Source: Candidatus Amesbacteria bacterium GW2011_GWC2_45_19
Lineage (GTDB): Bacteria; Patescibacteriota; Microgenomatia; CAZETR01; Amesbacteraceae
NCBI GenBank assembly: GCA_001001555.1
Contig: LCKS01000002.1
Location: 7,074 to 71,073 of the forward strand
Reading direction: 5' to 3'
DNA length: 64,000 nucleotides
The position numbers and the translations under genes are program-made. Of the stretch, positions 39,769 through 60,584 are shown in pieces. The notes beneath the pieces were generated by a model that was given only the letters and a program-made list of their open reading frames with translations, searched no databases and had not been told where the DNA came from. Numbering within the stretch: the stretch's first letter is position 1; the number at the start of each line of letters is the position of its first letter.

Positions 39769-41447
39769 TTATCGTCAAATACCGGGCGGCCGCAGAATTA
39801 GCTGCTTGTTTACCCAGTCTGAAAAAATATCATGTCATCATCGTCGACAACGACAAAATAAACCGGGGTTATGCCGCCGGCAACAATCTGGGGGCTAAAA
39901 GTGCCAAAGGGGAATACTTGCTCATTCTCAATCCGGACACGGTCGTTTCCCCCGGCGCCATCGAATTATTAGCCACTTTTCTGGACACTCATCCCCAAGC
40001 CGGAATTGTCGCTCCGTTTCTTCTTGACCCAGCCGGCCGGCCCTATCCTTTGCAAGGCACCCGGGAGCTCACGCCCCTCACTGGTCTGGTCGCTCTCTCG
40101 TTTCTGAACCAGATTCCTAATCCCATTTCCCGCCATTACTGGCTGGCCGATTGGGACAAACGCCAGCCGCGCCAAGTAGACGTCGTCCCCGGCACAGCTT
40201 TTCTTATTCGCAAGCAAATTTATGACCAACTCGGCGGATTCGATGAAAACTTCTTCCTCTATTTTGAAGAAGCCGATCTCTGCCGCCGTGTCCGGCATGC
40301 GGGCTGGGAAATTTACATGTATCCGCCGGCCAAAATTATGCATTACTGGGGCGCCAGTACCCCAAAATCTGCCCGTATCCAGGCCATTTTCTCCGCTTCC
40401 CGTTTTTACTACTTTCGCAAGCATTTCGGCCTGCTTTGGGCCATCGTAGTCCATCTCGTTTGTTCTTTTTCTCTCCTCTGGCTGGCGGTTATTTTAGGAG
40501 CCGCCCTGCGTTTCTACCGGTTTCCTGGCCTTATGCCCTTTATCGGCGACCAGGCCTGGTACTATTTGGCCGCCCGCGACGCTCTTCTGGGCGGGAGATT
40601 GCCCTTGTTGGGCATCACCGCCAGCATCACCTGGCTACATCAAGGCCCACTTTGGACTTATCTCCTGGTTCCCTTGATTGCCCACCCCGTCCTCCCAGCC
40701 ATCCTGACCTCAATCATGGGCGTGGTCTCCGTTTATTTAATTTACTTCCTAGGTGGCTGGCCAGCCTCTCTGCTATTAGCCGTTCTGCCATTAGCCGTTC
40801 TCCAATCCCGCATGCCCTACCACACATCTCTCATTCCTCTATTTTCTATTCTCTTTCTCCTATTTTTACGTCGTCATAAAGATTTCCTCGCCGGCCTCTT
40901 CCTCGGCTTCCTCTATCAATTGCACCTGCTCACATTCATCTTCTGGCCAATTATGTTTTGGCGCCGCCGCCTCATCCCCGGTTTTATTCTGGGGATTCTC
41001 CCTTTTTTACTAGTGGGACCAGTCCAAACATTTGGAATTCTCGCCTGGATCGCCAAGCATTCTCTCGCCGGTTTCGGCGGCTCCACCATCTCCACAGCCT
41101 ACCTCGTCGTCCTCCTCGTCCCCGCCATCCTCGTTGTCTCTTGGTTTCTCAATCGCCTTCCAAAGTTTATCGGGATTTTGATAATTGTGATTTATTTGGG
41201 ATTTAGTTATTCGAATTTAGATATTGGTTCATCTTTATCTAGCAGAATCGTTCTATCTAAAGCAATTTTGAGGGAGAGCGGCACTGACGCTCCGGAAATT
41301 GTCATGTCCGGTCCCGGTTCCAAATTTCGCTCCTACTCCATGCCCTACGAATACCTCGTCTGGTGGCTGTCCCGTTCCACCTCTCCAGAGGGCTCTCACA
41401 CAAAATTCCTTATCCATGAGTCCTCTCAAACTTTCGAACAGCTTTGA
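39747..41447 (+). CDS. GT2 glycosyltransferase fused to a C-terminal polytopic membrane domain
   Basis: N-terminal VSIIIVKY...DNDKINRGYAAGNNLG...LLILNPDTVV GT2 core then about 300 aa hydrophobic domain. Confidence 0.7.
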   Translation: MPSRVSIIIVKYRAAAELAACLPSLKKYHVIIVDNDKINRGYAAGNNLGAKSAKGEYLLILNPDTVVSPGAIELLATFLDTHPQAGIVAPFLLDPAGRPYPLQGTRELTPLTGLVALSFLNQIPNPISRHYWLADWDKRQPRQVDVVPGTAFLIRKQIYDQLGGFDENFFLYFEEADLCRRVRHAGWEIYMYPPAKIMHYWGASTPKSARIQAIFSASRFYYFRKHFGLLWAIVVHLVCSFSLLWLAVILGAALRFYRFPGLMPFIGDQAWYYLAARDALLGGRLPLLGITASITWLHQGPLWTYLLVPLIAHPVLPAILTSIMGVVSVYLIYFLGGWPASLLLAVLPLAVLQSRMPYHTSLIPLFSILFLLFLRRHKDFLAGLFLGFLYQLHLLTFIFWPIMFWRRRLIPGFILGILPFLLVGPVQTFGILAWIAKHSLAGFGGSTISTAYLVVLLVPAILVVSWFLNRLPKFIGILIIVIYLGFSYSNLDIGSSLSSRIVLSKAILRESGTDAPEIVMSGPGSKFRSYSMPYEYLVWWLSRSTSPEGSHTKFLIHESSQTFEQL

Positions 41448-41465
41448 AGGGCCACGCCTTTTTGA
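41446..41465. repeat. REP-like palindrome (left flank of RAYT): GAAGGGCCACGCCTTTTTGA
   Basis: Inverted copy of 42168-42200; core AAGGGC-CAC-GCCTTT hairpin. Confidence 0.75.
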
Positions 41466-41477
41466 TATAGTTAGACC

Positions 41478-42167
41478 ATGCCAGCCAAAAATACCAGAAA
41501 ACAATTCATAGAAAACTCTTATTATCATATTTACAACAGAGGAGTCGAAAAACGGCAAATATTCATGGACGATATGGATTATTCAGTATTCATTTCATAC
41601 TTAAAAAGTTACTTGCTGCCCAAAAGCGAAGAGTTTTTGCACGGCATATTTTCAAATGAAAGTTCGACACCCAAGCAAAAGGCCGACGCCCTCAAACTAT
41701 TAAGGCTTAATAATTTCTCTGAGACAATTTCACTCACTGCCTACTGCCTGATGGGTAACCATTTCCATTTTTTGGTTAAACAAACTATGGCAGACGGTAT
41801 TGATAAATTCATGAATTCGTTGATGACTAGGTACACCATGTATTTCAATCGCAGACACAAGCGGGTCGGCCATTTGTTCCAAGGAAATTACAAAGCAGTA
41901 TTGGTCGAGACTGAAGCGCAGTTACTGCACCTCACCCGCTATATCCATCAAAATCCAGCCTCGAAAGGCCACGCCTTTCAAACTCATCCATACTCATCCT
42001 ATCAACAATATGTTTCGTCAGCACGCCTCGAATGGATAAAACCAGATGAAGTTCTCAACTATTTTTCCAAGCAAGGCTTTAATTCATACGCAGCTTTCGT
42101 TGGAGATACTCATATTTACGATTCTTTGATGATCATCTCCGGATTAACTTTAAGTGAATCAGACTAG
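41478..42167 (+). mobile_element. REP-associated tyrosine transposase (RAYT, IS200/IS605 TnpA-like HUH Y1 enzyme)
   Basis: YHIYNRGVEKRQIF, HUH motif YCLMGNHFHFLV and catalytic-Tyr region RYIHQNP; flanked by inverted REP hairpins; contains one REP copy internally (41963-41983). Confidence 0.8.
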
Positions 42168-44756: not shown

Positions 44757-44827
44757 GCCTCCTTAGCTTAGTGGTAAAGCGGCGGTATCGTAAACCGCGG
44801 ACGCTAGTCCGATTCTAGCAGGAGGCT
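44757..44827 (+). tRNA. tRNA-Thr (anticodon CGU), no encoded CCA
   Basis: Hand-folded: acceptor GCCTCCT/AGGAGGC, D-arm GCTT-AGTGGTA-AAGC, anticodon stem GCGGT/ACCGC loop ATCGTAA, T-arm GCTAG-TCCGATT-CTAGC (unusual C at position 55). Confidence 0.65.
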
Positions 44828-45095
44828 CTGCGCCTCGTCCTCGCAGAGCGAGAGACGGGCGGCACAAACTTATGTATACCGTCTACGTTTTAAAAAGTCT
44901 GAAAGATGGAAGGAAAATATTAGAAGAACCAAACAATTCTATATCAGTCGATGATTATATAGCCGCCAGATGGGGAGAAAAAAAGCATGTAGGTCAGTCT
45001 ACCCCCACTGGGTTGAAGTAGACACACCAAACAAAATTATCATTGTCACCCGCATCAAGCACTGTAAAGACGTGTACAGATAGCACAGATAGCAG

Positions 45096-45120
45096 CTTTG
45101 AAAGGCCACGCCTTTCAAAG
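45096..45120. repeat. REP-like palindrome CTTTGAAAGGC-CAC-GCCTTTCAAAG
   Basis: Perfect 11-bp arms; same family as RAYT flanks; overlaps the stop region of the 45115-46248 gene. Confidence 0.8.
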
Positions 45121-46248
45121 CCCCTCCACCTCCGGAAGCTCCAGGGGTTTGATCTCTTGAAGTTCTCTCCCTGTTACGGCCTGCAATTCACCATACATCC
45201 CGTGAGTGTTGTCGATAATCTTGCGCAATTCCTTTTCCTGCCTCGCCCATTTCAGATTAAACCAGCGTTTTTCTTTCTCTATATCTCCCTGCAAATTATT
45301 AAAAGCCTCGACAATGGCTTCAATCCTGTGAGTAAACTCCACACTCCTTAGATATTGGTACAGCACCTCCATTTTTTCATTTTTTCCCACATTAGCCAAT
45401 TTTTCAAAATGGATATGGATTAAATCAAACCGCAGAGCCATCGCCAACCCCCTGGCGGATTTTAAGGTTGTTACCCAAACATTTTCTCTGTAAACAAACG
45501 TCTCGATGTCTTCGGGAGGATTAGCTACCACCAAAACTGCCAGTTGCGCCCCGGCTGCTCTTTGATCTTCCCTTAATTTCTTCAGCCACCCGTCGCTCCA
45601 TTGCGCGTTTTTAGACTCCCATAAGATCATTCCGCATTCACGGCCCAGCTTATCAACCACCGTTTGGGAAATATCTGCGCCCCGTTCTCCTTTCTTAATT
45701 TCGGCTATCCTGTCTTCGGGAAACTCTCTCCTCAAGGTTTGTTCCAGCCCCAATTCCATCACTTCTCCTTGGCCTTGTTGGGATCCCTGCTCTAATTTGC
45801 GCTTCAGCTCATCGTTCATTTTTAATGCATCTTGCAGTTTCTTGTCTTTTTCAGCGTCTTTTAATTGATGCTCTTCATCGGCTTTTTTCCTGGCCTCTTG
45901 CCGTATTTTATCTTCCTCTTCGGCTAGTTTTTTCTGCATTTCCAGCTTCGCGTCATCTTTTTCCTGCCTGGCTTTGCGCAGTTCTTTCGTTAAATCTCCC
46001 AATTGCTCCTGCAGCTTTTTATTTCTTTCCTTCTCATCCACCTCCGCCTCCTGCAACCGTTTGATAGCCGACTCAAAATCAGCCTTGACCTTTGCGGCGG
46101 TCGTTTCTTCGGCTTGCCGGCGGGCGGCTTCTAAATCCTTTTGGTGTTTAACTCTTTCAGTTTGCAGAACCTGTTCGGAAATTTGATGTTCCAAAGCCTC
46201 GGAAATTTCAATCTCCTGCCCGCAATTTTTACATTTAATAGTGCTCAT
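45115..46248 (-). CDS. Zn-ribbon / coiled-coil / C-terminal PD-(D/E)xK-like nuclease-fold protein (DUF2130-like)
   Basis: N-terminal CxxC...(KCKNCGQ), long E/K-rich coiled coil, C-terminal GADISQ...ILWESKNAQ resembling D...ExK restriction-endonuclease-like motif. Confidence 0.4.
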   Translation of the reverse strand: MSTIKCKNCGQEIEISEALEHQISEQVLQTERVKHQKDLEAARRQAEETTAAKVKADFESAIKRLQEAEVDEKERNKKLQEQLGDLTKELRKARQEKDDAKLEMQKKLAEEEDKIRQEARKKADEEHQLKDAEKDKKLQDALKMNDELKRKLEQGSQQGQGEVMELGLEQTLRREFPEDRIAEIKKGERGADISQTVVDKLGRECGMILWESKNAQWSDGWLKKLREDQRAAGAQLAVLVVANPPEDIETFVYRENVWVTTLKSARGLAMALRFDLIHIHFEKLANVGKNEKMEVLYQYLRSVEFTHRIEAIVEAFNNLQGDIEKEKRWFNLKWARQEKELRKIIDNTHGMYGELQAVTGRELQEIKPLELPEVEGL

Positions 46249-46249
46249 A

Positions 46250-46903
46250 TCAAGGCACTTCCACTACTCCCTCCAGCCCCACGGGCAGATCTTTTAGCTC
46301 ATCAGCCGTTAAATCCACTACCCAGTCTCCACCGGCCAGCATTTTCGGCAAGCTCGCCTGGCCAAAGATCTTTTTGCCCAATTTTGGTAAATCAACCGGC
46401 AACTTCACCGGGTTGGCAAATCTCCGGCATTCATGAGGCTCAATTTTGATCCGGAAAATCACAGACACCGTGTCCAAAATTATCACCGAGTTAGCCGCCG
46501 GAGCAACATTCAGTCCCACCGCGCACCCGCCCATATCCAAAATCACTCCCGCCACCGGCGAAGTCAAATCGGCCTGATCCAGGCGGTATTTGGCCTGCTC
46601 CACTTCTTTAACCGAGGCGTCTAAGCTCGCCTGTTGGCTGGATTTATTGTACCGGGTAATGTCATCCCCGGGATTTTTAAAGCGGATGTTAAATATCTCA
46701 AAATCCGCCCGCACCTGCTGGTTTTGGGCCAATTGCCGGTCCAAATCCGCCTGCAGTATCTGCCGGTCCAGCGAGGCGATAATCTCGCCCTTGCTCACGC
46801 TGTCGCCCGCGTTTTTGCGCAAACTCACCAGTTTTCCGGAGAAGGCAAATCTGGTTTCCACGTTCCGCCCCCACACCTGTCCGGAAAATTTATTACTGGC
46901 CAT
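46250..46903 (-). CDS. truncated HlyD/RND membrane-fusion-protein-like periplasmic adaptor (no N-terminal TM)
   Basis: Biotinyl-lipoyl-like halves (GKLVSLRKNAGDSVSKGEIIASLD; LTSPVAGVILD) and beta-barrel segment; only 217 aa. Confidence 0.5.
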   Translation of the reverse strand: MASNKFSGQVWGRNVETRFAFSGKLVSLRKNAGDSVSKGEIIASLDRQILQADLDRQLAQNQQVRADFEIFNIRFKNPGDDITRYNKSSQQASLDASVKEVEQAKYRLDQADLTSPVAGVILDMGGCAVGLNVAPAANSVIILDTVSVIFRIKIEPHECRRFANPVKLPVDLPKLGKKIFGQASLPKMLAGGDWVVDLTADELKDLPVGLEGVVEVP

Positions 46904-46915
46904 AAAATTACTATA

Positions 46916-47554
46916 TCATGGTTTACAATCTGATCCTTTGACAAATCCGGCTGCCCGCGCTTCTTTTTCGTTGCAAAACCACCCATCGCCTAAATATAAC
47001 TGCACGACGGTATTACCGTATTGTCCGCAACCAGGGTAGCGGTAAAACTTGGTCTCTTTTCCCTGCTGACCAATATTACCTTTGATATTGCACTTGGGTT
47101 GAATAGGATTTACATCTTGGGTACAGCCGGCGCCAAATATTCCTAAGGTACCGGCTCGGGCTTTCTCTCCTGCCTTCAGTAATTCATCTGCGTTAGAATC
47201 CGTGCCTCTGGCAAAATACGCCCAACCCTGCTCCAACATCTTTTTATTGACATAAATATTTCCCGCATATACTTGGCTGACCAGGCGTTTAAATTTATCA
47301 TTAAACACCACTTTTATTTGCAGCCGCTTCCCCAAAATCAACTTCTCCAGAGCTTGTTTGGCTTCGGTGCCGCCGCAATATTTCAACTCCGGGGCATCTA
47401 CACCGGCCAGGCGGACAACCTGTTTTTCCTTGGTTTCAAAAGTGTCCCCGTCTATCACTCGGGCAACCTGATATGTGGTTTTCAAATACACCGCTGCGGC
47501 TAAAACCACCGTCCCTACCACCCCCGCCATTATCTTCCCTTTCATTTTTCCCAC
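46916..47554 (-). CDS. membrane-anchored thermonuclease (SNase family) with Cys-rich C-terminal domain
   Basis: N-terminal TM; VIDGDTF...VRLAGVDAPEL SNase motif; C-terminal CNIKGNI...YRYPGCGQY...WFCNEKEARAAGF domain. Confidence 0.75.
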   Translation of the reverse strand: MGKMKGKIMAGVVGTVVLAAAVYLKTTYQVARVIDGDTFETKEKQVVRLAGVDAPELKYCGGTEAKQALEKLILGKRLQIKVVFNDKFKRLVSQVYAGNIYVNKKMLEQGWAYFARGTDSNADELLKAGEKARAGTLGIFGAGCTQDVNPIQPKCNIKGNIGQQGKETKFYRYPGCGQYGNTVVQLYLGDGWFCNEKEARAAGFVKGSDCKP

Positions 47555-47577: not shown

Positions 47578-48276
47578 ATGTATACTATCAAACAGGGAAA
47601 TGCAAACTTTATGAATAAAGAAGTTACCAAGATAACTAAAATCGCGATCTTCCAAAACAGGAAAATCCGTAAAACCATTTATCAGAATGAATGGTGGTTT
47701 GTGATCGAGGATGTAGTTTTAGCACTAATTGATTCAAATGACTCAAAGCAATATATTCAGCGCATGAGACTTCGTGACCCTGAGCTTTCCAAAGGGTGGG
47801 TACAAATCGTACATACCCTTTTAATGGAAACCAGTGGTGGTAAGCAGAAAATGAATTGTGCTGATACTGAGGGTGTTTTTAGGATTATCCAATCAATCCC
47901 TTCTCCTAAAGCAGAACCTTTTAAAAGATGGTTGGCCAGAGTTGGATATGAAAGGGTACAGGAGATAGAAGATCCGGAGCTTGCCCAAAAAAGGGTCACA
48001 TCTGAATATAAGAAAATAAAAGGACTCAAGCGTCAAAACCTGCGTGACCATATGAATGATTTGGAGCTGCTATTTTCTCAGCTTGGTGAAGCAGCAACCA
48101 CAGAGATTACCAAAACAGATCATCCTCAAGGGTTTAAGAAAAATAAGCAAGTCTCAAAACGTGGAGGTAAAATTGCCGGAGACGCCAGATCCAATCTTGA
48201 ACGCGAAACTGGAAGAAAAGTAATTACCTCGCAAAATTATTTACTTAAGAGACAGAATAAGAAACTTTTAAAATGA
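47578..48276 (+). CDS. Bro-N domain protein (DinD/antirepressor-like)
   Basis: IAIFQNRKIRKTIYQNEWWFVIEDVVLAL resembles Bro-N; AT-rich gene. Confidence 0.45.
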   Translation: MYTIKQGNANFMNKEVTKITKIAIFQNRKIRKTIYQNEWWFVIEDVVLALIDSNDSKQYIQRMRLRDPELSKGWVQIVHTLLMETSGGKQKMNCADTEGVFRIIQSIPSPKAEPFKRWLARVGYERVQEIEDPELAQKRVTSEYKKIKGLKRQNLRDHMNDLELLFSQLGEAATTEITKTDHPQGFKKNKQVSKRGGKIAGDARSNLERETGRKVITSQNYLLKRQNKKLLK

Positions 48277-48977
48277 ACAAATTTTATTTAGAAATTTTAG
48301 AAGCAATTAAACAAAAGGCTAAAAAAACAAAGCAAACCTCGGAGACATCCGGATATTTGGGACATAGGCATTTCCATTATGGATTAAGTGTTCCCCAGAG
48401 AAGGGTAATAGCTAACGCATGGATTAAAAATAATAATGCTATTTCTCTAACAAAATTTATAACTCTGTTAGACCTTCTTTATCGAGGAGACTCTTACGAA
48501 GAAAAATCTATGGCCGGATTGCTTCTGGGATATTTACCAAAACTTAGAAGACAATTGAATCCTAAATTATTGGATAACTGGCTTAGTTACTTGGAAGGTT
48601 GGGCTGAAATAGATTCTACTTGTCAGTCCAATTTCACGGCAGATGAAATCCTACTTAAGTGGAATGATTGGGAAAAATTAATTAAGAGTTTTGCTGACAA
48701 TAAAAGCGTTAGTAAGAGAAGAGCGAGCTTAGTATTATTAACAGGAGTTGTTAATAACTCGAATGATAAAAGACTTATCGGTTTGGCTTTTGAAGTTATA
48801 GATAAACTAAAATCTGAGAGAGATATTTTAATTACAAAAGCCGTCTCTTGGCTTCTAAGAAATTTAATCAGACACAATAAAATCAGAGTTGAAAAGTATC
48901 TCGACGAAAATTTAGACTACTTACCCATTATAGCAATAAGAGAAACTAAAAATAAACTTAGAACTGGCAAAAAATAG
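48273..48977 (+). CDS. DNA alkylation repair protein (AlkD/AlkC-like HEAT-repeat glycosylase family)
   Basis: C-terminal KAVSWLLRNLIRHNKIRVEKYLDEN resembles the DNA_alkylation family signature; overlaps upstream gene by 4 nt. Confidence 0.5.
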   Translation: MNKFYLEILEAIKQKAKKTKQTSETSGYLGHRHFHYGLSVPQRRVIANAWIKNNNAISLTKFITLLDLLYRGDSYEEKSMAGLLLGYLPKLRRQLNPKLLDNWLSYLEGWAEIDSTCQSNFTADEILLKWNDWEKLIKSFADNKSVSKRRASLVLLTGVVNNSNDKRLIGLAFEVIDKLKSERDILITKAVSWLLRNLIRHNKIRVEKYLDENLDYLPIIAIRETKNKLRTGKK

Positions 48978-49244
48978 ATAAAAGATTCAATAATTCTATT
49001 ATTCTACTGGCGGGGTACTTTTAACGCTAAAATAATAAGATGATACAGTTTTATAGCACAGTTAAAAGTTAGTTCGACCCCCGTCAGGGTATAAGGTTAT
49101 GGGATTAAATTTTGGCAAACTTTAGAAACTTTCCGAAGCTAAAATCCACGAGTTCGATAAAATTTCTATGGAGCTAGTTTTTGAAAAAGTTCGCACTGAT
49201 TTTCGAGATTCTCCGTGATGCTGCTGGCTCCCGCCTTCGCTGCC

Positions 49245-49295
49245 AGCTTCGGCCGTGCAGGCCGGCTCGGCTGCGGCCTCGCCTCCGCTTATTTT
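49245..49295. repeat. GC-rich structured element A (GCTTCGGCCGTGCAGGCCGGCTCGG...) in AT-rich island
   Basis: CGGCC-loop-GGCCG hairpin; related copy at 53121-53185; sharp GC spike in a ~35% GC background. Confidence 0.55.
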
Positions 49296-49493
49296 TTGCG
49301 CCCGAGATTATGCTCGCTAACGCGAGCATATTTTACTAAAATTTCCATTGGAATGGAAACTTTTGGCTTTGCCCCACCCACCCGTGCGTGCCAACGTAAA
49401 ATACATTGATAAGACTCCCTCTCCAGCCTTACTATTGACAGGAATTATTTTTTATGTTAAATATAGTTAAATCTGACTTAACTAAAATATACA

Positions 49494-51239
49494 ATGAAAA
49501 AAGTTAACAATACTAAAATTTTATCGACTGCAGAGGCTAGTCGTTTATTGGGGCTAACCCGGCAAACGTTATATAAACTCGCGGAAAAAGGTGAACTACC
49601 GGGGAAAAAGATCGGCAGAAATTATAAGTTCTTCGAGCAAGATATTTTAAGCTATATTCGCCTCCATAAAAAGCTTCCGAAATATAAAGAGTGGGAATTA
49701 AGAGCAGATTTTGCTACTGAAGGGATTAAGAAAATGGCAAAACGTACTTTTCAAGGTCTTTCATCAAATATTGAAGAGCTAATTGCAAATTCATATGATG
49801 CTGATGCAACTTCCGTAAGGATTGTCATTAATAACGACAAAGGAACGTTGAGCATAATTGACAATGGTTCAGGGATGGATGAATCTGCGCTTGCTTCTTT
49901 TGTGAAGTATGGGAAGAGTGATAAGGACTCAGATTACCGTTCTCCAAAATTTGGACGGTCTCCGATTGGCGAATACGGAATGGGCGGAAAGCTGGCAATA
50001 ACTAATATTTCTAGACGTTGCAAGATAATTACAAGAAGAAACGGTTATGAGCACATATTTAACATGAATCGTGCAGACCTCGATAAGGCTAAGTATATAA
50101 GTGATGTCAAAAGTAGGGTGCTGACCAAAAAATGCAGTAAGAAATACCACGGTACTGAAATATACATGGAAGATTTGTTTACGAAAACTATCGACAGTGA
50201 AAGGTTGCAGGAGAGATTTTCTACAAAAATGCCATTAAGTCAGAATTTTCAAATCGTTATGGTCGTCATTCGAAATAATGAAAAAAAGGAACAGACAGTA
50301 AGCGAACCTATTTTTGAATATGAACGAAAATTCGACTTTAGTGACGATCTTCCAAAAATAGGGAATGTTAAGATGTCTATTTATTTCACTAAAGAGCCTA
50401 TAGCGGCTACAAAACAAGGTGTATGGACAAAGGTAAATGGGAGAATAGTTAACGAAAAAGCTGAGTGGTTTGATTTGTTTCGAGCAACCTCCGGTACGAG
50501 ATATAGATATAGGTTATTCGGGTATGGTGAGGCTGATGGTCTGAAAGACTATGTGACTTTTTCTAAAAACGATTTTATCGACTGTCCCGAATACAATGAG
50601 TATTGGGAATTTGGTCACAAAAATATCTTAAAGGTACAAAATACCCTTCTTCGTGATGACGAGAACATTAAAAAGGAGCAAGATAGAAACCTAGTGAAAG
50701 ATGTTGAGAAAGAAGTGAACGATATTGTCTCGAAATTAGATGACCCCGCCACATTAGGTGTTCTTGAGGCGAAAATAAAGAAGGAGTTTACGAAGGAAAA
50801 GGAAAGTGCTCCTGAAGCTCCTTATCCAAATATAGATGTTATTGAAAAAGAGGCAGAAAAAGTTGTTTCCGTAGTCAAAAGAGGAAAAGATAAAAGAGAA
50901 AGGCGAAACCAGTCCATAGCCCCTAGTGAAAGAGTGTCATACTCAGGTAGAAATTATGTAATAACACCAGTCGATCTTTCTGAAACAGGGGACATTGTCA
51001 AATTTACTAAAGAAATGAACTTAATAGAAATTAACGAGAAGCATCCCTTGTACGTTAAAGCATCTAGAAACAGCTCATTAGATGATTTAGTTAGAAGTCT
51101 CGCATTTACAGAAATTGCTTACGACTACAGCGAAGGGGACTTTGTTAGTTTTGACGCTGTATTTAATGAATTAGCTAGAATTGCGTCAAGGCGGGTTAAA
51201 TTAATTGGTATGGAAGATCTAACAGCTAGTAGCGGGTAA
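49494..51239 (+). CDS. HTH (excisionase/MerR-like) fused to GHKL/MORC-like ATPase (HATPase_c_3) protein
   Basis: N-terminal HTH (STAEASRLLGLTRQTLYKLAEKGELPG); Bergerat-fold boxes ELIANSYDADA (N-box), IIDNGSGMD (G1), GEYGMGGK (G2); 581 aa. Confidence 0.6.
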   Translation: MKKVNNTKILSTAEASRLLGLTRQTLYKLAEKGELPGKKIGRNYKFFEQDILSYIRLHKKLPKYKEWELRADFATEGIKKMAKRTFQGLSSNIEELIANSYDADATSVRIVINNDKGTLSIIDNGSGMDESALASFVKYGKSDKDSDYRSPKFGRSPIGEYGMGGKLAITNISRRCKIITRRNGYEHIFNMNRADLDKAKYISDVKSRVLTKKCSKKYHGTEIYMEDLFTKTIDSERLQERFSTKMPLSQNFQIVMVVIRNNEKKEQTVSEPIFEYERKFDFSDDLPKIGNVKMSIYFTKEPIAATKQGVWTKVNGRIVNEKAEWFDLFRATSGTRYRYRLFGYGEADGLKDYVTFSKNDFIDCPEYNEYWEFGHKNILKVQNTLLRDDENIKKEQDRNLVKDVEKEVNDIVSKLDDPATLGVLEAKIKKEFTKEKESAPEAPYPNIDVIEKEAEKVVSVVKRGKDKRERRNQSIAPSERVSYSGRNYVITPVDLSETGDIVKFTKEMNLIEINEKHPLYVKASRNSSLDDLVRSLAFTEIAYDYSEGDFVSFDAVFNELARIASRRVKLIGMEDLTASSG

Positions 51240-51297
51240 ATACCAGACAGTTATTAGTTATATTTTCGTAACAAAATAGAAACTAGTTAAAAAGATA

Positions 51298-52413
51298 ATG
51301 ATCAAAGGCATTTTTCCAAACGAAAAAATTTTGACAAGGGGCCGTCTTCATGATGACGATTCGATAGATGTACTTAACTTTCCAACTCGCGTACTAAACA
51401 CCTTAGTAATGCACGACTATGAGACCGTTGGACATTTTTATCGCGTGTCGATGGCTGATTTGGGAAGGATAAGAAATATTGGAACTAAGACATTAAAGTA
51501 CTTTGGAGAAGTCAAAGCAGCAATAAAAGAACATCGAAAAGAGCCTGATCTGCCGCCACTAGAAACCGCGAAGTCAAAGGAAGCAAAGCCTTCAAGTTTT
51601 GTGCCTTATTTGACAGAAACTGAAAAAGAAAGAATGAAGTTGGTTAAGAGACTCTATGACGAGTATGGCACTCTAGAAAAAGTGGGAAGCCTGCTGAGAC
51701 TGTCAAGAGAAAGAGTTAGACAAATATTAAATAAAGGTCAAAAATATGGCCTTTTCACTTACCAGTTAACCCGAGATAGAAAATTTGATGAAGTGCTAAA
51801 CAAGATAGATGGGGAACGGCTAAGGGTATTACTTAGTACTACCAAAAATCAATTTGATGTTTGTTCGAATTTGGGGATAGATATAAGTACTCTTCAAAGG
51901 TTGATTAAATATTATAACATTGATCTCGTGTCCTATAAACAGGATGCTAGATATAAGAGATACTTAGTAGAATACTCCGAGATGGTTCGCGTACTTGGAT
52001 ATCATCCATCTACCACCATTATGCAGCGCCGCAAGGAATGGAGGAAAATATGGGCGGGTATTGTTAGGCTGTGGGGAAGTTTTGATCGATTTAGAGCAGA
52101 GTTTGGTATCGAAAAACCTAAACACTCTATGCACCCTAACACCTTAAAAGCTTGGCAACGAGCAAAGGAAAGAAGAATGGCGCATAAAAAGGAAAAAGTC
52201 GAAAACGTATACAAAATCATCGCTGAGCATGGTCCTTTAACTTGCAAAAAAATTTCCTACCTGGCAGGGTATAGTGATCAAATTGTCTATCAATATGTAA
52301 AAGATATGGTTAAAAAAAATAAGATTAAAAAATTAGGCAAAGGAAATAGAATTAAGTACGGATTAAATATTCAAAAAAATTATATTAAGCAATCAAAAAA
52401 CTATGCACACTAA
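51298..52413 (+). CDS. DNA-binding protein with RNAP alpha-CTD-like HhH and sigma70-region-4-like HTH
   Basis: LNFPTRVLNTLVMHDYETVGHFYRVSMADLGRIRNIGTKTLKYF (alpha-CTD-like); LSRERVRQILNKG (sigma70 r4-like); 371 aa. Confidence 0.4.
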   Translation: MIKGIFPNEKILTRGRLHDDDSIDVLNFPTRVLNTLVMHDYETVGHFYRVSMADLGRIRNIGTKTLKYFGEVKAAIKEHRKEPDLPPLETAKSKEAKPSSFVPYLTETEKERMKLVKRLYDEYGTLEKVGSLLRLSRERVRQILNKGQKYGLFTYQLTRDRKFDEVLNKIDGERLRVLLSTTKNQFDVCSNLGIDISTLQRLIKYYNIDLVSYKQDARYKRYLVEYSEMVRVLGYHPSTTIMQRRKEWRKIWAGIVRLWGSFDRFRAEFGIEKPKHSMHPNTLKAWQRAKERRMAHKKEKVENVYKIIAEHGPLTCKKISYLAGYSDQIVYQYVKDMVKKNKIKKLGKGNRIKYGLNIQKNYIKQSKNYAH

Positions 52414-53059
52414 TGACGAAATTAAAGAAACTATTTTAAAATGTCTATATGAGCATGTTCAAAAATCTAAAGGACCTTCCGGTATTCCGATGGGGATACG
52501 AGATTTAACCTCGGCAGTCAAATCCAAAATTGACGTTAAGCAACAGGTAGTTAGTTCTAACCTACATTCATTAATAAAAAACGGGTTTGTGGATGAGAAG
52601 GAGGTTCAAAATCCTTACGCTGCCGCTAAGTTTAACAGCAAGCCCGCTGTTAAATATGAACTCTCGAGAGCCGGAATTAGTTATTTTGATCAAGGTTCAA
52701 AGTTTGATCTGGCAGATAGAAACACAGGTATAAACATTCAAATGTTAAACAGCGCTGTGGTTATCGGAAATCAAAACATAGTCAAGAATATTGTGAGGGA
52801 GGAATATAAAGAGGGTTACTTGAAACTTGAGGAACTTGGGAAAAGAGTCAACTTATCTTCTGATATAAAAAATGAAGACAAAGTGAATTTGCAAGCTGAC
52901 ATTGAAACCATTAAAAACCAACTTGCGAAAGTTTCTCCAAACCACAATATTGTAAAAGCAGCTTTAGCAAGCCTATCAGGATTAGCTGATATATCTCAGT
53001 TATCTTCTCATTATGAAAGCGTCAAGAATTGGATTCTTTCCATCTTGGGCTTTAGTTAA
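52403..53059 (+). CDS. hypothetical protein (possible wHTH N-terminus)
   Basis: 218-aa ORF overlapping upstream gene by 11 nt; no recognised motif. Confidence 0.35.
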   Translation: MHTNDEIKETILKCLYEHVQKSKGPSGIPMGIRDLTSAVKSKIDVKQQVVSSNLHSLIKNGFVDEKEVQNPYAAAKFNSKPAVKYELSRAGISYFDQGSKFDLADRNTGINIQMLNSAVVIGNQNIVKNIVREEYKEGYLKLEELGKRVNLSSDIKNEDKVNLQADIETIKNQLAKVSPNHNIVKAALASLSGLADISQLSSHYESVKNWILSILGFS

Positions 53060-53120
53060 AAATTTTTGCATTTTCTCGTTTGAACACAAGGGAAAACACA
53101 GTTTGAGCCGATGTTTGCGG

Positions 53121-53185
53121 AGGCTTCGGCCGTTAGGCCGAGCCGGAGCCTGGGTGCGAGGCCGCGAGGCAGCCGAGCTTGATCA
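53121..53185. repeat. GC-rich structured element B (GCTTCGGCCGTTAGGCCGAGCCGG...)
   Basis: Shares GCTTCGGCCGT-N-AGGCCG-N-CGG core with element A. Confidence 0.55.
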
Positions 53186-53279
53186 CAGGGAATTTTCCCG
53201 AAAATCAGTTCGAACTTTTTCAAAAATCAGCTCAAAAGTCCTAAATTTTGAGTTGGTAACGATTAAAAGGTAAGTAGTT

Positions 53280-54167
53280 TCAAGATATGTTTCTTGTAAT
53301 TGTTTTCATTTTAAACATTTTTGTATCTATCAAAAACTCATACCCCGTTAATTTTAGCCATAGGTTAATGTTTTCTGTCAGTTGATACATTGGTACACCC
53401 AGATGACTAACCAGACTCCGATTAATCTTATAGGTTTTAAGTGCTTCAGCCTCATGATATTTAGGAATGTCTGGAAAATCTAAAACTTGATATTTATCGT
53501 CTTTCACTCTCCTTAAGAGTAAAAACCTGTCAGGATAATTTTTGTTCTCCTTGTTAACCTCACTACCCCTAACTAACCTGTATTTATTTTTAACATCTTT
53601 ATCTTCAGAAGGGAGAAAGATATTTTCAATTTTCTGCACGTCACTCACATCTCTAAGTCTTTTCAATAATTCAATAACTGCAATGATTTGATCATTTTCA
53701 AATTTTTCTGTGATAAGGGGGTTTTTCAAAATATTTTCGAGGTTCGATTCGTACGCCTCCCAAGTTCTGAATATTTGAAATCCAAAAAAGGTATTTGTTT
53801 CCAATAATTTGTTTATATCTTTTAAGCTTATAGATAAAAATTTGGACACACTACTTTGGCTATAATCTAACTCTTCCAGTGGATAAAAGAATTTCATGAG
53901 TTGATATACTATTCCCAAAACCTCTCTATCAATCTGCATTTTTCCGTACTCAAATATTTCTTGATTTAGTTTTCTGTTGGAAACACTCTTTATCAGTTCA
54001 TAAGAAATTAGGATTGCCGTAATAGCAATTAACGAAGCAGAAATATTAATTAAAAGATCTCTAATGTTTCCATTAACATATTTGCTTAGGCAATATATGA
54101 AAATGCCTGTTAGAAAAGATACAAAATAGGGCAACATAGTATAGAAAAAGCTTTTTGGAAATTTCAT
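53280..54167 (-). CDS. hypothetical membrane protein (2 N-terminal TM + cytoplasmic domain)
   Basis: 295-aa ORF, AT-rich, no known motif. Confidence 0.4.
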   Translation of the reverse strand: MKFPKSFFYTMLPYFVSFLTGIFIYCLSKYVNGNIRDLLINISASLIAITAILISYELIKSVSNRKLNQEIFEYGKMQIDREVLGIVYQLMKFFYPLEELDYSQSSVSKFLSISLKDINKLLETNTFFGFQIFRTWEAYESNLENILKNPLITEKFENDQIIAVIELLKRLRDVSDVQKIENIFLPSEDKDVKNKYRLVRGSEVNKENKNYPDRFLLLRRVKDDKYQVLDFPDIPKYHEAEALKTYKINRSLVSHLGVPMYQLTENINLWLKLTGYEFLIDTKMFKMKTITRNIS

Positions 54168-54313
54168 ACCCTAATTATAAATCAAGTTGTGTTGGTGTTA
54201 TACTCGGATTACCGAATGACCTCTGTGGTGAAGGTATCTTACTTTTAGAGAACTGATGGCACGAAAGTGATCCATCTTAGCCACAGAGATCGCATACAAA
54301 TAGGTATCAAAAT

Positions 54314-55129
54314 ATGAACGGGAATGATAAAGCATTGGTAACGCAGAGGATTGGTCAGTTAAAAAAATCGGCTGGAGAGTTAGCTGAGAATGTCACAGTA
54401 AATAATAAAAAAGAGTTTGTAAGTGTGGTGGGTTTATTACTTCACAACCTTGCCTCAGTCGTCGTTCCTGGATATGCCGTTGGTGCGGGGACTATAAAAG
54501 ATTATTATGATCAAAAGGTTAATAAGAAAAGACAACAAGAGATTGATTCTCTCCTGGGCAATTTAAATAGACGTTTGTCTTCAGTTGAGATAAAGCAAGA
54601 AGCGGTCGATTATTTTGAAAACACAATTGTGTTTCAGCTCGAAGAAATAACTCGGAAATTATTAACAAATCCCGGCAGAGGCTTTGGTGAAGTAATAGCT
54701 GAATTTGTCGCTAGCGCATTAGAAAACATGGATCTTCACCCCAAAACTAAAGATCTTGTACTATCTACGCTCCTAAGCTTGGACAGCGTAGATCTTTTGG
54801 TGCTTAAAACTATGGACAAGCATTTTCTTTCAAATTTACCTCAAAATGGAGGAAATGGGGCTAGGGGCGTAACCAGAGATTCTATTTGTACCTTACTTAA
54901 GGACCGCAATATGGACGAAGCTGTTATTGATCGATCTCTCCAGCGACTACAGTCAGAATCACTTATTCAACCCATGAAAGTTAGTGCTCCCGCTATTACT
55001 GAAGCTCCGACTGCGGATGAGTTGTATAAAGGAAAACGACCTGACCAATTCGATGCTCCCGGAGGATTTATTAACACAGGTTTCGGTAGAATATTTATTA
55101 ATTTTCTTAAACTGAATGACGACAAATGA
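54314..55129 (+). CDS. hypothetical protein
   Basis: 271-aa ORF, 4-nt ATGA overlap with next gene (translational coupling). Confidence 0.4.
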   Translation: MNGNDKALVTQRIGQLKKSAGELAENVTVNNKKEFVSVVGLLLHNLASVVVPGYAVGAGTIKDYYDQKVNKKRQQEIDSLLGNLNRRLSSVEIKQEAVDYFENTIVFQLEEITRKLLTNPGRGFGEVIAEFVASALENMDLHPKTKDLVLSTLLSLDSVDLLVLKTMDKHFLSNLPQNGGNGARGVTRDSICTLLKDRNMDEAVIDRSLQRLQSESLIQPMKVSAPAITEAPTADELYKGKRPDQFDAPGGFINTGFGRIFINFLKLNDDK

Positions 55130-55950
55130 ATATCAAAAATGATATTGATGTAATAATTCAGAACCTTAAATCATCGTTAGATTCAACTTCTGAGTCAAAA
55201 AAGCAATTGAGCGGATACACAATTCAGCTAGGGAAACAAGAAGAGCAAATTGAATCGGCAATTAACTTATGGGAAGAAATGAAAGGACAGAATGTCACGC
55301 CTCCTCAACCAATCACCGCCTCTGGAGTTGCACTAACTTATACTCTCCAACAATCATCACAAGATTTAAAGACATACGTCTCGAATCAAAGTTGGACAAA
55401 TCAGCTACAAGCTTTGGGGACAACTGCTCTAACAATAAATTCTGTTGCTGCTTCTGGAGCCTCGCTCTCATACCCACCAGGATATCGTTCGCAAGCCCTT
55501 GTTCAAGTAAATCTAATTGAAGAGAGGTATAGTCAAAGATCTGCGATCTCGCAGAAACTTTATGCAATTGATCAGTCATTAGGCCAAGAGTATGATAACG
55601 CTTGGCAAACATTACATCAGGCCACTCAAGATCCTACCCGTTCACCAATGTTTCTAATGAGGGAGGTGGAACGCAGATTGCTTGATTATTTTGCTCCAGA
55701 GATCGAACTTAGAAAGTATCATTCATTAGTTCCTAGCGACAAAATAACAGGCAGGCATAAAGTAGATTACTTGAAATCAATAATCAAACCATCTGCACAA
55801 ACCGCTTTTCTTGCCCAAGAACAGGCGTTAAATAACATTTATGCTTTATTGAGTAAGGCACATTCACCAGGCCAATTAGACATCGAGAAAACTAAAGCAT
55901 TTTTATACCAAGCTGATGCTCTGATTCAATTACTATTAGATTCTTTTTAG
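55126..55950 (+). CDS. hypothetical protein
   Basis: 274-aa ORF coupled to upstream ORF. Confidence 0.4.
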   Translation: MNIKNDIDVIIQNLKSSLDSTSESKKQLSGYTIQLGKQEEQIESAINLWEEMKGQNVTPPQPITASGVALTYTLQQSSQDLKTYVSNQSWTNQLQALGTTALTINSVAASGASLSYPPGYRSQALVQVNLIEERYSQRSAISQKLYAIDQSLGQEYDNAWQTLHQATQDPTRSPMFLMREVERRLLDYFAPEIELRKYHSLVPSDKITGRHKVDYLKSIIKPSAQTAFLAQEQALNNIYALLSKAHSPGQLDIEKTKAFLYQADALIQLLLDSF

Positions 55951-56065
55951 GTCCGACTCCGGTATCGGGTATTCAAAACTTCCAGGCTAACTCAAAAAAG
56001 CAAAAAAACCTGGCTCGAACCAGGTTTCTAGGCTAAATTTGCTAAAATTTCAATTCATTACGGTA

Positions 56066-56139
56066 TGGAGCGGGATACGGGAATCGAACCCGCTTCTTCT
56101 GCTTGGGAAGCAGATATACTACCGGTGTACTAATCCCGC
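56066..56139 (-). tRNA. tRNA-Gly (anticodon CCC), CCA encoded
   Basis: Reverse-complement fold: acceptor GCGGGAT/ATCCCGC, D-arm GTAC-ACCGGTA-GTAT, anticodon stem TCTGC/GCAGA loop TTCCCAA, T-arm GCGGG-TTCGATT-CCCGT. Confidence 0.8.
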
Positions 56140-56379
56140 ATTTAGTAGTTTTTTCAAAGCCTCGCCACCTTTGTAGGATTTTATCATCTTTTCTCTGGCT
56201 AAAGCTTCACTATATGTCTCATACTGCTCAGAATAAATTAATTTCCAATTTCCTTTAGCATAACGAGTTGAAGTAGTTTTTCCCCGATTGTGTTCAGCCA
56301 GTCGTTTTTCCAAGTCAGAAGTACAACCGATATATCTCCGGTTTGAAAGTATATTTTGGATAATATAGGTCCAAAACAT
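56119..56379 (-). CDS. small GIY-YIG nuclease (stand-alone catalytic domain)
   Basis: MFWTYIIQNILSNRRYIGCTSDLEKRLAEHNRG...KGNWKLIY...E motif set of GIY-YIG domain. ORF extends to 56412 through a hairpin; 3' end overlaps tRNA-Gly by 21 nt. Confidence 0.7.
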   Translation of the reverse strand: MFWTYIIQNILSNRRYIGCTSDLEKRLAEHNRGKTTSTRYAKGNWKLIYSEQYETYSEALAREKMIKSYKGGEALKKLLNAGLVHR

Positions 56380-56409: not shown

Positions 56410-56434
56410 CATACTACCGGTGTACTAATCCCGC
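56410..56434. repeat. 25-bp perfect direct repeat of the tRNA-Gly 5' portion (other copy 56116-56140)
   Basis: ATACTACCGGTGTACTAATCCCGCA occurs twice, bracketing the GIY-YIG ORF. Confidence 0.9.
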
Positions 56435-56469
56435 ACTTCGACTCCGCTCAGTGTAAACTATTTTACAAC

Positions 56470-60546: not shown

Positions 60547-60561
60547 TATGTCAAACTAGGT

Positions 60562-60584
60562 CAAAAAGGCCACGCCTTTCAAAA
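60562..60584. repeat. REP-like palindrome CAAAAAGGCCACGCCTTTCAAAA
   Basis: Same GGCCACGCCTTTCAAA core as RAYT flanks; intergenic between helicase and polX. Confidence 0.75.

Follow-up and report, generated by a model that had tools for sequence, protein, structure and literature searches.

Three genes stacked almost end to end on the minus strand of an ultra-small CPR/Microgenomates groundwater bacterium raise the question of whether a staphylococcal-type nuclease (SNase; g1), a protein resembling the core of an efflux adaptor (g2) and a DUF2130 protein (g3) work together. An earlier sequence-only reading of this DNA had treated them as one functional unit. Our analysis points to two units, with a probability of about 0.6: a scavenging nuclease accompanied by g2 as a recurrent accessory, and an unrelated DUF2130 gene juxtaposed with them at a tRNA-flanked rearrangement hotspot.

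Layout and boundaries of the locus

The window, by which we mean the whole 64,000-nucleotide stretch of DNA that was analysed, contains the three ORFs in the tight stack that the sequence-only reading had described, with gaps of 12 nt between g1 and g2 and 1 nt between g2 and g3. The main features are as follows.

46916..47554, minus strand: g1, SNase-family nuclease predicted to be exported, its C-terminal part a Cys-rich sunset domain; 212 aa counted from a GTG
46250..46903, minus strand: g2, 217 aa, modelled as an anchorless membrane-fusion-protein core
45115..46248, minus strand: g3, 377 aa, DUF2130/COG4487 protein in which a CxxC/His finger and a long helix precede a PD-(D/E)XK-like domain
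45093..45121, no strand assigned: REP-like perfect 12-bp hairpin (27-nt palindromic repeat) overlapping the stop codon of g3
44757..44828, plus strand: tRNA-Thr(cgt), identified with ARAGORN; conserved boundary of a variable slot

All three are genuine genes of a CPR bacterium from the Microgenomates group; they are probably co-transcribed. The hairpin at the g3 stop likely marks the 3' end of the transcription unit, and its position and that of the tRNA-Thr gene bear out the boundaries originally given for the locus. According to ARAGORN analysis of relatives, the tRNA-Thr gene is flanked by g2 or DUF2130 on one side and by Big-Wzy_C on the other. The 27-nt repeat is present in four copies within the window, the one at g3 spanning 45093-45119 and the others lying at 41439, 41956 and 60557; a Y1/HUH transposase-like ORF (41478-42167) lies beside or over two copies.

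The true start of g1 is more likely the ATG at 47545, which yields 209 aa, than the GTG, because the gene is so called on identical public contigs, which carry the identical 209-aa protein (P0154). For g2, the GTG of public gene calls (203 aa) was rejected and the ATG at 46903 retained, since the upstream N-terminal motif MxNKFxGxxWGR is conserved across the family. We also rejected a read-through fusion of g1 and g2: the two are in frame across a TGA in the window, but the corresponding genes of locus L097 share an out-of-frame ATGA overlap, and gene order and orientation differ elsewhere. No second SNase paralogue was found in the window.

Architecture of the three proteins

The first gene encodes a clear SNase homologue (Pfam PF00565, 58 bits against a cut-off of 21, 1.4e-15) with three recognisable segments.

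47483..47533, minus strand: g1 residues 8-24, N-terminal hydrophobic segment preceded by K3, K5 and K7
47132..47467, minus strand: g1 residues 30-141, SNase catalytic domain with D37, R48, D53, E56 and R90
46937..47086, minus strand: g1 residues 157-206, Cys-rich sunset domain with the motif CxIKGN...PGC...WFC...AG

A phmmer alignment to PDB thermonuclease structures equates D21, R35, D40, E43 and R87 of the Staphylococcus aureus nuclease with D37, R48, D53, E56 and R90 of g1. The protein thus keeps the catalytic domain of staphylococcal nuclease and YncB-type thermonucleases with all key Ca2+-binding and catalytic residues, and it shares with them an N-terminal export or anchor segment. It differs from them in its shorter core (about 110 aa) and in an added C-terminal six-Cys domain, which matches the NCBIfam sunset model NF051437 over residues 157-206 at a borderline 27.1 bits (cut-off 27). 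The hydrophobic stretch I8-L24, with a Kyte-Doolittle 19-residue maximum of 1.85 at residues 6-26, may be either a signal anchor or a signal peptide with an AAA motif at residues 19-21; taken with the six cysteines, it suggests export. An equivalent segment is present in all SNase neighbours of g2 homologues, nearly all of which also keep the sunset motif. The earlier description of an extracytoplasmic SNase with an extra Cys-rich domain therefore agrees with the Pfam and sunset matches and the hydrophobic N-terminus. The combination of an export or anchor segment with an SNase domain is shared by hundreds of Patescibacteria proteins that carry the annotation thermonuclease or YncB. In the literature searched, neither the sunset domain nor CPR thermonucleases were the subject of any paper.

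CPR/Patescibacteria are unable to make nucleotides, and surface nucleases are for this reason thought central to their scavenging lifestyle. We infer that g1 would be a homologue of staphylococcal nuclease, of the Ca2+ type, that is either exported or anchored in the membrane and whose C-terminal sunset domain is rich in disulfides. At the cell surface it would most likely degrade extracellular DNA and RNA, and the digestion would feed nucleotides to an organism that cannot synthesise them. DNA scavenging is a reasonable role to assign to it on these grounds.

Sequence models alone place g2 poorly. All curated adaptor models scored below cut-off (best, TIGR01730, 47.7 bits against 94.9), as did Pfam Biotin_lipoyl_2 (19.9 against 29.8). 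Its AlphaFold (AF2) model (pLDDT 89, pTM 0.73), however, superposes in Foldseek on the cores of MexA, AcrA, MacA and Spr0693 (E 1e-13), with TM-scores of 0.78-0.82 to MexA and AcrA, the highest to the MexA crystal core. The protein models as the β-barrel, lipoyl/BSH and short α-hairpin core of membrane-fusion proteins, with one feature that could be placed directly from the AF2 secondary structure.

46577..46765, minus strand: g2 residues 47-109, α-hairpin of helices 47-74 and 81-109

This three-domain core resembles that of the adaptors MacA (E. coli), YknX (B. subtilis) and Spr0693 (S. pneumoniae) of MacB-type ABC pumps and of the RND adaptors MexA and AcrA. The sequence-only reading was right about a lipoyl and β-barrel core without a transmembrane (TM) helix; it also noted the lack of a long hairpin, but g2 does have an α-hairpin, which is the most conserved part of the family (invariant columns Q51, L54, D55, R65, Q91, A92, L94, V98, V101, E102, K105 and D109). 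Unlike canonical adaptors, g2 has no TM helix and no lipobox, and no hydrophobic segment occurs in any of 29 aligned family members; the membrane-proximal domain is missing as well, the protein ending with the β-barrel. The recurrent partner of g2 is, moreover, a nuclease gene and not a pump.

The family is discrete, CPR-restricted and small (33 to about 55 clusters). It comprises about 55 representatives of 200-225 aa at E<1e-29, beyond which there is an abrupt jump to the nearest outside relatives, adaptors of 335-370 aa that are matched from about residue 55 to about 280. Outside the matched region, these canonical adaptors have about 55 further residues on the N-terminal side and 60-70 on the C-terminal side. 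The g2 family would accordingly have kept the β-barrel, lipoyl domain and hairpin of YknX/MacA-type membrane-fusion proteins and would have lost the anchor and the transporter-binding domain. Neither in the window nor in 38 of the 39 lineages does g2 adjoin an ABC, RND or MFS transporter gene; the sole exception is L003, where a distant g2 member follows a YknX-like/ABC/MacB operon.

The third gene encodes a full-length, high-scoring DUF2130 protein (PF09903, 188.4 bits against 26.7, 1.9e-55, profile positions 2-253 of 255). Its AF2 model (pLDDT 82) divides into three parts.

46186..46242, minus strand: g3 residues 3-21, β-hairpin bearing the invariant C6 and C9, then a helix on which H21 lies
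45790..46206, minus strand: g3 residues 15-153, single long charged helix of ~140 residues (DSSP on the model)
45394..45780, minus strand: g3 residues 157-285, α-β-β-β-α-β core with D192 at the start of β2 and E211-x-K213 in β3

An N-terminal Zn-ribbon had been proposed for this protein. Two knuckles were not found in g3: there is a single CxxC (C6-x2-C9), joined by the conserved H21 and H35. In the model, strands 3-5 and 12-14 precede the helix, and the N-terminus gives a weak zf_UBZ match, so that the fold would be a C2H2/UBZ-like finger on a β-β-α unit. The long helix is presumed to form a coiled-coil stalk.

The proposal of a DUF2130-like, D...ExK nuclease-like C-terminus fared better. D192, E211 and K213 are invariant across 36 sequences, and the model places the first at the start of strand 193-198 and the other two within strand 204-216. 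The Foldseek matches in the PDB are weak (E 0.02-0.5) and mostly PD-(D/E)XK or restriction-endonuclease-fold proteins, among them the SPARDA nuclease, MspJI, HindIII, McrC, Bax1, Hjc and BamHI, and the region looks like a putative PD-(D/E)XK nuclease domain. Searching PDB sequences with the DUF2130 profile gave nothing beyond coiled-coil and zinc-finger noise. DUF2130 has been placed in the PD-(D/E)XK superfamily (Steczkiewicz et al, 2012; PMC3424549). RmuC, described in the same paper, combines a coiled coil with a PD-(D/E)XK domain and is implicated in limiting recombination. In g3, as in RmuC (PF02646), a long helical region at the N-terminus leads into a PD-(D/E)XK-like domain. An identification with RmuC was nevertheless rejected, as there is no Pfam RmuC match and hhalign against E. 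coli RmuC gives a probability of 0.5%. We know of no feature in RmuC comparable to the N-terminal CxxC/His finger of g3.

Nothing sets g3 apart from the rest of DUF2130/COG4487, for which the literature searched yielded catalogue-style lists and no characterised member. It has more than 2000 homologues at 56-91% identity, and the family occupies 552 loci in species genomes. A hydrophobic N-terminal anchor is absent from g3, as it is from g2. The protein would be an ordinary member of a widespread single-copy family, a cytoplasmic finger-coiled-coil-PD-(D/E)XK protein that would presumably act on intracellular DNA.

Nuclease-adaptor pairing across lineages

The pairing of g1 and g2 recurs across lineages above background, and we regard the link as real. 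Dereplication of g2 at 90% identity left 39 lineages, and 15 of them had an SNase/sunset gene no more than 1 kb from g2; 0.43 were expected from the background rate in 646 kb of other CPR flanks. This is a roughly 35-fold excess over the local background, with a Poisson P of about 2e-18 that treats the 39 lineages as independent and overstates the case, because they are not phylogenetically independent. SNase is the most frequent neighbour family of g2 (16 lineages), followed by GIY-YIG (7), LysM (6) and NUDIX (6). Thus, of the functional unit originally proposed, it is the nuclease-adaptor pair that persists, and the trio that does not.

The pair occurs in four configurations (SNase>g2>, g2>SNase>, g2>SNase< and SNase<g2>); as these include convergent and divergent arrangements, the two genes are often not co-transcribed. 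The window SNase is 43% identical to the g2-adjacent SNases of L097 and L007, whereas g2 itself is 85% and 79% identical, indicating that the SNase was replaced at the same site. Adjacency survives this replacement, inversions and one insertion, and it lasts to about 40% g2 identity, where the remaining neighbourhood is unrecognisable.

Part of the adjacency could be inherited synteny. Taken further, this becomes a reading in which no functional link exists, the SNase-g2 pair included, and synteny is combined with accessory genes accumulating at tRNA-flanked hotspots. The cargo of the tRNA-Gly/tRNA-Thr slot indeed differs in each relative, SNase/g2 orientation is not conserved, the closest g1 orthologues sit in a different context, and many g2 loci have no SNase: none was seen in the available flanks, many of them short, of more than half of the g2 lineages. 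Against this stand the size of the enrichment, which no other neighbour family approaches, and the persistence of adjacency through rearrangement and divergence. We consider the absence of any link unlikely.

Since g2 is encoded next to SNase/sunset nucleases far above chance, it would most likely act as an accessory partner of the nuclease, putatively as a regulator, inhibitor or scaffold. The interaction would take place in the cytoplasm, or through an unrecognised export route, because g2 carries no export signal. The nuclease does not need g2, as shown by five other SNase/sunset genes examined, all of which lack it.

One specific form of partnership would be a toxin-immunity pair, in which the SNase is an effector aimed at other bacteria or at a host, and g2 confers immunity to it in the cytoplasm; barnase-barstar, colicin DNase-Im and B. 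subtilis NucA-Nin would be the analogies. NucA is a membrane DNA-entry nuclease with the gene of its inhibitor, Nin, adjacent. As there, a surface nuclease gene would stand beside a gene for a small signal-less protein; unlike there, the nuclease comes from an unrelated family and its partner has an unrelated fold, and the likeness is one of gene arrangement alone. An export signal on the nuclease and none on g2 would suit such a pair, as would the order in the window clade, where g2 directly follows the SNase on the same strand (with a 4-nt overlap in L097), and the exchange of the SNase at the site for a divergent one. Yet g2 holds at 85% while the SNase falls to 43%, the opposite of what co-diversifying pairs show, and in most other lineages g2 precedes the SNase, or the two genes converge or diverge. 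Nucleases of the staphylococcal type depend on millimolar Ca2+ and normally do no harm inside the cytoplasm. With a pI of 6.6, g2 is not acidic; most SNase/sunset genes occur without it, and we know of no inhibitor precedent for the adaptor fold. Immunity is a very improbable function for g2.

A bolder version of the accessory reading, which we entertain tentatively as the less probable one, makes the g2 family a new class of nuclease accessory: an anchorless efflux-adaptor core recruited in CPR as a dedicated SNase/sunset partner that may gate, inhibit or scaffold the enzyme supplying these auxotrophs with nucleotides, and that in some lineages might join the DUF2130 nuclease in a DNA acquisition or processing module. 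Should a signal-less efflux-adaptor core indeed cooperate with nucleases of the SNase type, a very well-studied fold would have acquired a new use. SNase-g2 is a concrete, testable pair that would overturn no established idea.

The DUF2130 gene and the tRNA-flanked slot

The remaining question is whether g3 belongs with the pair. As one three-component system, SNase, adaptor-like protein and DUF2130 would serve DNA acquisition, processing or defence, and the operon-like spacing of 12 nt and 1 nt with a single REP hairpin after g3 favours this. However, outside the window the trio was seen only on contigs of its own Rifle-groundwater population and is split in its closest relatives, which have tRNA-Gly-SNase-g2-tRNA-Thr without DUF2130. 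Specifically, L097 shows tRNA-Gly-SNase-g2-tRNA-Thr-Big-Wzy_C, and in L007 an aldo-keto reductase separates SNase from g2 and DUF2130 is absent from the site. Conversely, DUF2130 orthologues at 89-91% identity (L008, L100) adjoin NlpC/P60 or a serine hydrolase, with neither SNase nor g2.

The sequence-only reading had pointed to co-occurrence of SNase and DUF2130 genes as the comparison to make. Among 80 DUF2130 loci from distinct other species, an SNase lies within 5 kb in 3, a fourth shows a sunset-domain match alone, and none has a g2 homologue nearby; an adjacent convergent SNase at L031 (1/80) favours a shared system. Neighbour clustering across 83 DUF2130 loci revealed no conserved partner, no neighbour family exceeding 17 loci and none being SNase or adaptor. 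The disparity between the huge DUF2130 family and the tiny g2 family also weighs against a joint system.

A second, distant g2 clade (L115, L116, L139; g2 about 49% identical) provides a counterpoint, as DUF2130 lies immediately upstream of g2 and an SNase two genes downstream. Judging from overlapping contigs (L113 and L116, 94% identical in DNA), this is the only further lineage in which the three genes probably occur together, arranged differently and spread over 3-5.5 kb. Two independent DUF2130-g2 adjacencies, against roughly 0.1-0.2 expected under a random model, lead us to retain a three-way link as a possibility; on the other hand, DUF2130 is missing from the same slot in the sister contigs L114 and L118.

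Defence, the other role suggested for the locus, was rejected. In PADLOC-DB, g3 matched nothing, while g1 (3e-6, generic SNc) and g2 (6e-4) matched only weakly; PHROGs returned nothing meaningful for g1-g3, and among 2.9 million viral contigs g2 homologues were absent and DUF2130 occurred in 2. Taken together, a single three-component system is quite improbable. The DUF2130 gene at this locus is ordinary: a common stand-alone gene that landed beside SNase-g2, so that the trio is not one conserved system and the three-gene arrangement is mostly an accident of local rearrangement. Under the two-unit reading, the position of g3 behind g2 would be a lineage-specific juxtaposition in the tRNA-Gly/tRNA-Thr-flanked slot.

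That slot is rearranged in every related species examined, with an aldo-keto reductase, DUF2130, NlpC/P60 or a low-GC island of ~8.5 kb as cargo in different relatives. In the window, the spacer between DUF2130 and tRNA-Thr contains one further feature.

44872..45021, plus strand: 49-codon ORF whose translation begins MYTVYVLKSLKDG...

Judged by eye from its resemblance, this ORF is probably a GIY-YIG remnant; intact GIY-YIG genes are present in the equivalent regions of L001, L007 and L010.

Composition of the locus

The components of the trio belong to known families. Their reading frames were confirmed to be tightly stacked on the minus strand (45115–47554, gaps of 12 and 1 nt), as the sequence-only reading had observed; its interpretation of the locus is supported in part. 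The GC content of the trio, 0.47, equals the genome level. The window comes from a CPR bacterium of the Microgenomates group. Identical copies of the locus were found on Rifle-aquifer groundwater contigs, and the names borne by homologues include Amesbacteria, Gottesmanbacteria and Microgenomates.

46916–47554, minus strand: gene 1 (g1), SNase/sunset nuclease (Pfam SNase, 58 bits; NCBIfam "sunset" domain at threshold)
46250–46903, minus strand: gene 2 (g2), anchorless adaptor-like protein (sequence matches to adaptor families all sub-threshold)
45115–46248, minus strand: gene 3 (g3), full-length DUF2130/COG4487 protein (188 bits)

Gene 1 more likely starts at the ATG at 47545. Residues I8–L24, preceded by three lysines, form the sole TM-like segment among the three proteins, and an export signal is predicted on g1 alone. 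The Ca2+-binding and catalytic residues of the S. aureus nuclease are all retained (D37, R48, D53, E56 and R90), and there are six cysteines, of which the sunset domain or its immediate flank holds five, consistent with an extracytoplasmic protein. This architecture is common to more than 200 Patescibacteria proteins. We predict that g1 would break down extracellular nucleic acid for salvage.

The AlphaFold model of g2 (pLDDT 89, pTM 0.73) comprises a β-barrel, a lipoyl-type barrel-sandwich and a two-helix hairpin, and superposes on the cores of the membrane-fusion/adaptor proteins MexA, AcrA, MacA and Spr0693 (E ~1e-13, TM up to 0.82). No hydrophobic segment was found in g2, and its conserved N-terminus indicates that the reading frame is complete. 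A profile was searched exhaustively against 1.84 billion representatives and recovered ~55 proteins of 200–225 aa (E<1e-29), beyond which the matches jumped to adaptors of 335–370 aa, aligned from residue ~55 to ~280; this sharp switch defines a discrete and rare family. Its members have lost the anchor as well as the membrane-proximal domain. The hairpin is their best-conserved part.

The model of g3 (pLDDT 82) opens with a β-hairpin carrying the invariant C6 and C9, followed by an uninterrupted helix spanning residues 15–153 and a C-terminal α-β-β-β-α-β part in which D192 opens β2 and E211-x-K213 lies within β3. Foldseek matches were weak (E 0.02–0.5) and mostly to restriction-endonuclease-fold proteins. 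DUF2130 has already been placed in the PD-(D/E)XK superfamily, with unknown function (Steczkiewicz et al, 2012, PMC3424549), and the outcome that would have refuted the sequence-only reading, a C-terminus without a nuclease fold, thus did not arise. Profile comparison did not demonstrate a relationship between RmuC and g3.

The trio in related genomes

The sequence-only reading had treated the three genes as one system; outside the source population, however, the trio is not a unit. It is split in four related loci on other contigs.

Gene order in loci related to the window
L097 (g2 85% identical): tRNA-Gly, SNase, g2 (4-nt overlap), tRNA-Thr, Big, Wzy_C
L007 (g2 79% identical): as L097, except that an aldo-keto reductase separates SNase from g2
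L100 (DUF2130 89% identical): NlpC/P60, DUF2130, 172-aa gene, tRNA-Thr, Big, Wzy_C
L008 (DUF2130 91% identical): serine hydrolase, DUF2130, cold-shock protein

Compared with L097, the window has additional elements at two places: DUF2130, the REP hairpin and what is probably a remnant of a GIY-YIG gene lie between g2 and tRNA-Thr, and a low-GC island of ~8.5 kb separates tRNA-Gly from SNase. Among 80 DUF2130 loci from different species, none had a g2 homolog within ±5 kb and 3 had an SNase; the commonest DUF2130 neighbor family reached no more than 17 of 83 loci. We predict that g3 would target DNA inside the cell and function independently of g1 and g2.

A three-way link that includes DUF2130 is retained as a minority possibility, since two independent DUF2130–g2 juxtapositions exceed the roughly 0.1–0.2 naively expected. 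In a second g2 clade (L115, L116 and L139), DUF2130 lies directly upstream of g2, and in L113, a contig 94% identical in DNA to L116, an SNase gene lies two genes downstream of g2. In the sister contigs L114 and L118, DUF2130 is missing from its slot.

Many DUF2130-bearing, Patescibacteria-like contigs (L011–L090) are titled "uncultured Gammaproteobacteria bacterium" (binchicken/SRP co-assembly MAGs), labels that look unreliable.

Pairing of SNase genes with the adaptor family

What is new is a family of adaptors without an anchor, together with the repeated association of its genes with those of secreted nucleases; neither is described in the literature we searched. Pooling 45 g2 loci from metagenomes with the earlier set, followed by dereplication at 90% identity, yielded 39 lineages. 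In 15 of these, g2 had an SNase/sunset gene no more than 1 kb away, against 0.43 expected given how densely SNase genes occur across 646 kb of other CPR flanks; as these lineages lack independence, the P value should be taken only as a guide. SNase was by far the top neighbor family (16 lineages), followed by families in 7, 6 and 6.

Four arrangements of the pair were seen: SNase>g2>, g2>SNase>, g2>SNase< and SNase<g2>. At least three SNase clades are represented among these neighbors of g2. The SNase of the window is only 43% identical to that of L097, though the g2 proteins share 85%, indicating replacement at the same site. Adjacency that outlasts inversions, insertions and SNase replacement argues for a functional tie, in which g2 may serve as an accessory of the nuclease, in the cytoplasm or at the surface via an unrecognized route. 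A classical toxin–immunity pair fits poorly, as g2 is conserved whereas the SNase is swapped, and their orientation varies. No defense-system or phage signal emerged from PADLOC and PHROGs for g1–g3, or from viral contigs for g2 and DUF2130. The dependence is one-way: no g2 was found beside SNases near DUF2130 or beside the closest g1 relatives (59–63% identical).

Those relatives (L146:1356-3801 and L147:4609-7054) share another conserved context, comprising a convergent 175-aa zinc-ribbon protein, a β-CASP/RNase J-like metallo-β-lactamase and an RNase_H_2-like protein, which suggests a nucleic-acid-processing neighborhood different from that of the window.

In two second-clade loci (L122:3307-3885 and L128:2736-3308), a ~190-aa NYN/LabA-like ORF (…YAFIDSQNLNLG…) directly upstream of g2 shares its first ~12 residues with g2 (MAQRIFKGE.K / MTQKVFKGEVKGK) and looks like a cassette inserted in the g2 5′ end with target duplication. 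In this clade, g2 is often followed by TA-like small ORFs and RadC-like, DUF3800-like and type I restriction-modification subunit genes (L117:4708-7547, L114:4033-7274, L125:5384-8534); these neighbors, judged by eye from N-terminal sequences only, would place g2 at the edge of a variable defense island.

Surroundings of the locus

41439–41465, 41956–41982, 45093–45119, 60557–60583: four copies of a 27-nt palindromic element (…GAAAGGCCACGCCTTTCAAA)
41478–42167, plus strand: Y1/HUH transposase-like ORF, 229 aa
44757–44828: tRNA-Thr(cgt)
44872–45021, plus strand: 49-codon ORF (MYTVYVLKSLKDGRK...) adjoining tRNA-Thr
47578–48276, plus strand: Bro-N domain protein, divergent from SNase
48000–56140: low-GC island
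48273–48977: DNA_alkylation-repair-like gene
49494–51239: HTH+HATPase protein similar to BbrUII/HgiDII restriction enzymes
56066–56139: tRNA-Gly(ccc)

The g3 stop codon is overlapped by a perfect 12-bp hairpin belonging to the 27-nt family, two other copies of which lie just upstream of and inside the Y1/HUH ORF. The earlier label of a REP copy at this boundary is thus reasonable. The ORF is IS200-like and possibly REP-associated, and the arrangement points to a system of the REP/RAYT type in this CPR genome. The first 15 residues of the 49-codon ORF resemble the starts of small GIY-YIG proteins, which are common in related loci, and it is probably a decayed remnant of such a gene.

The island (GC 0.35–0.38, unlike the 0.47 of the trio) has the SNase/Bro-N genes on one side and tRNA-Gly on the other, and includes the DNA_alkylation-repair-like and HTH+HATPase genes. 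It looks like an integrated element, since tRNA-Gly is directly upstream of SNase in L097 and L007. Part of tRNA-Gly is repeated directly over 28 nt (56116–56143 and 56411–56438). The Bro-N protein matches the PADLOC candidate defense family PDC-S13 (E 2.4e-77) and an uncharacterized PHROG (5e-53). Its start lies only ~24–33 nt from that of the SNase gene, so the promoter of each must lie within the other gene.
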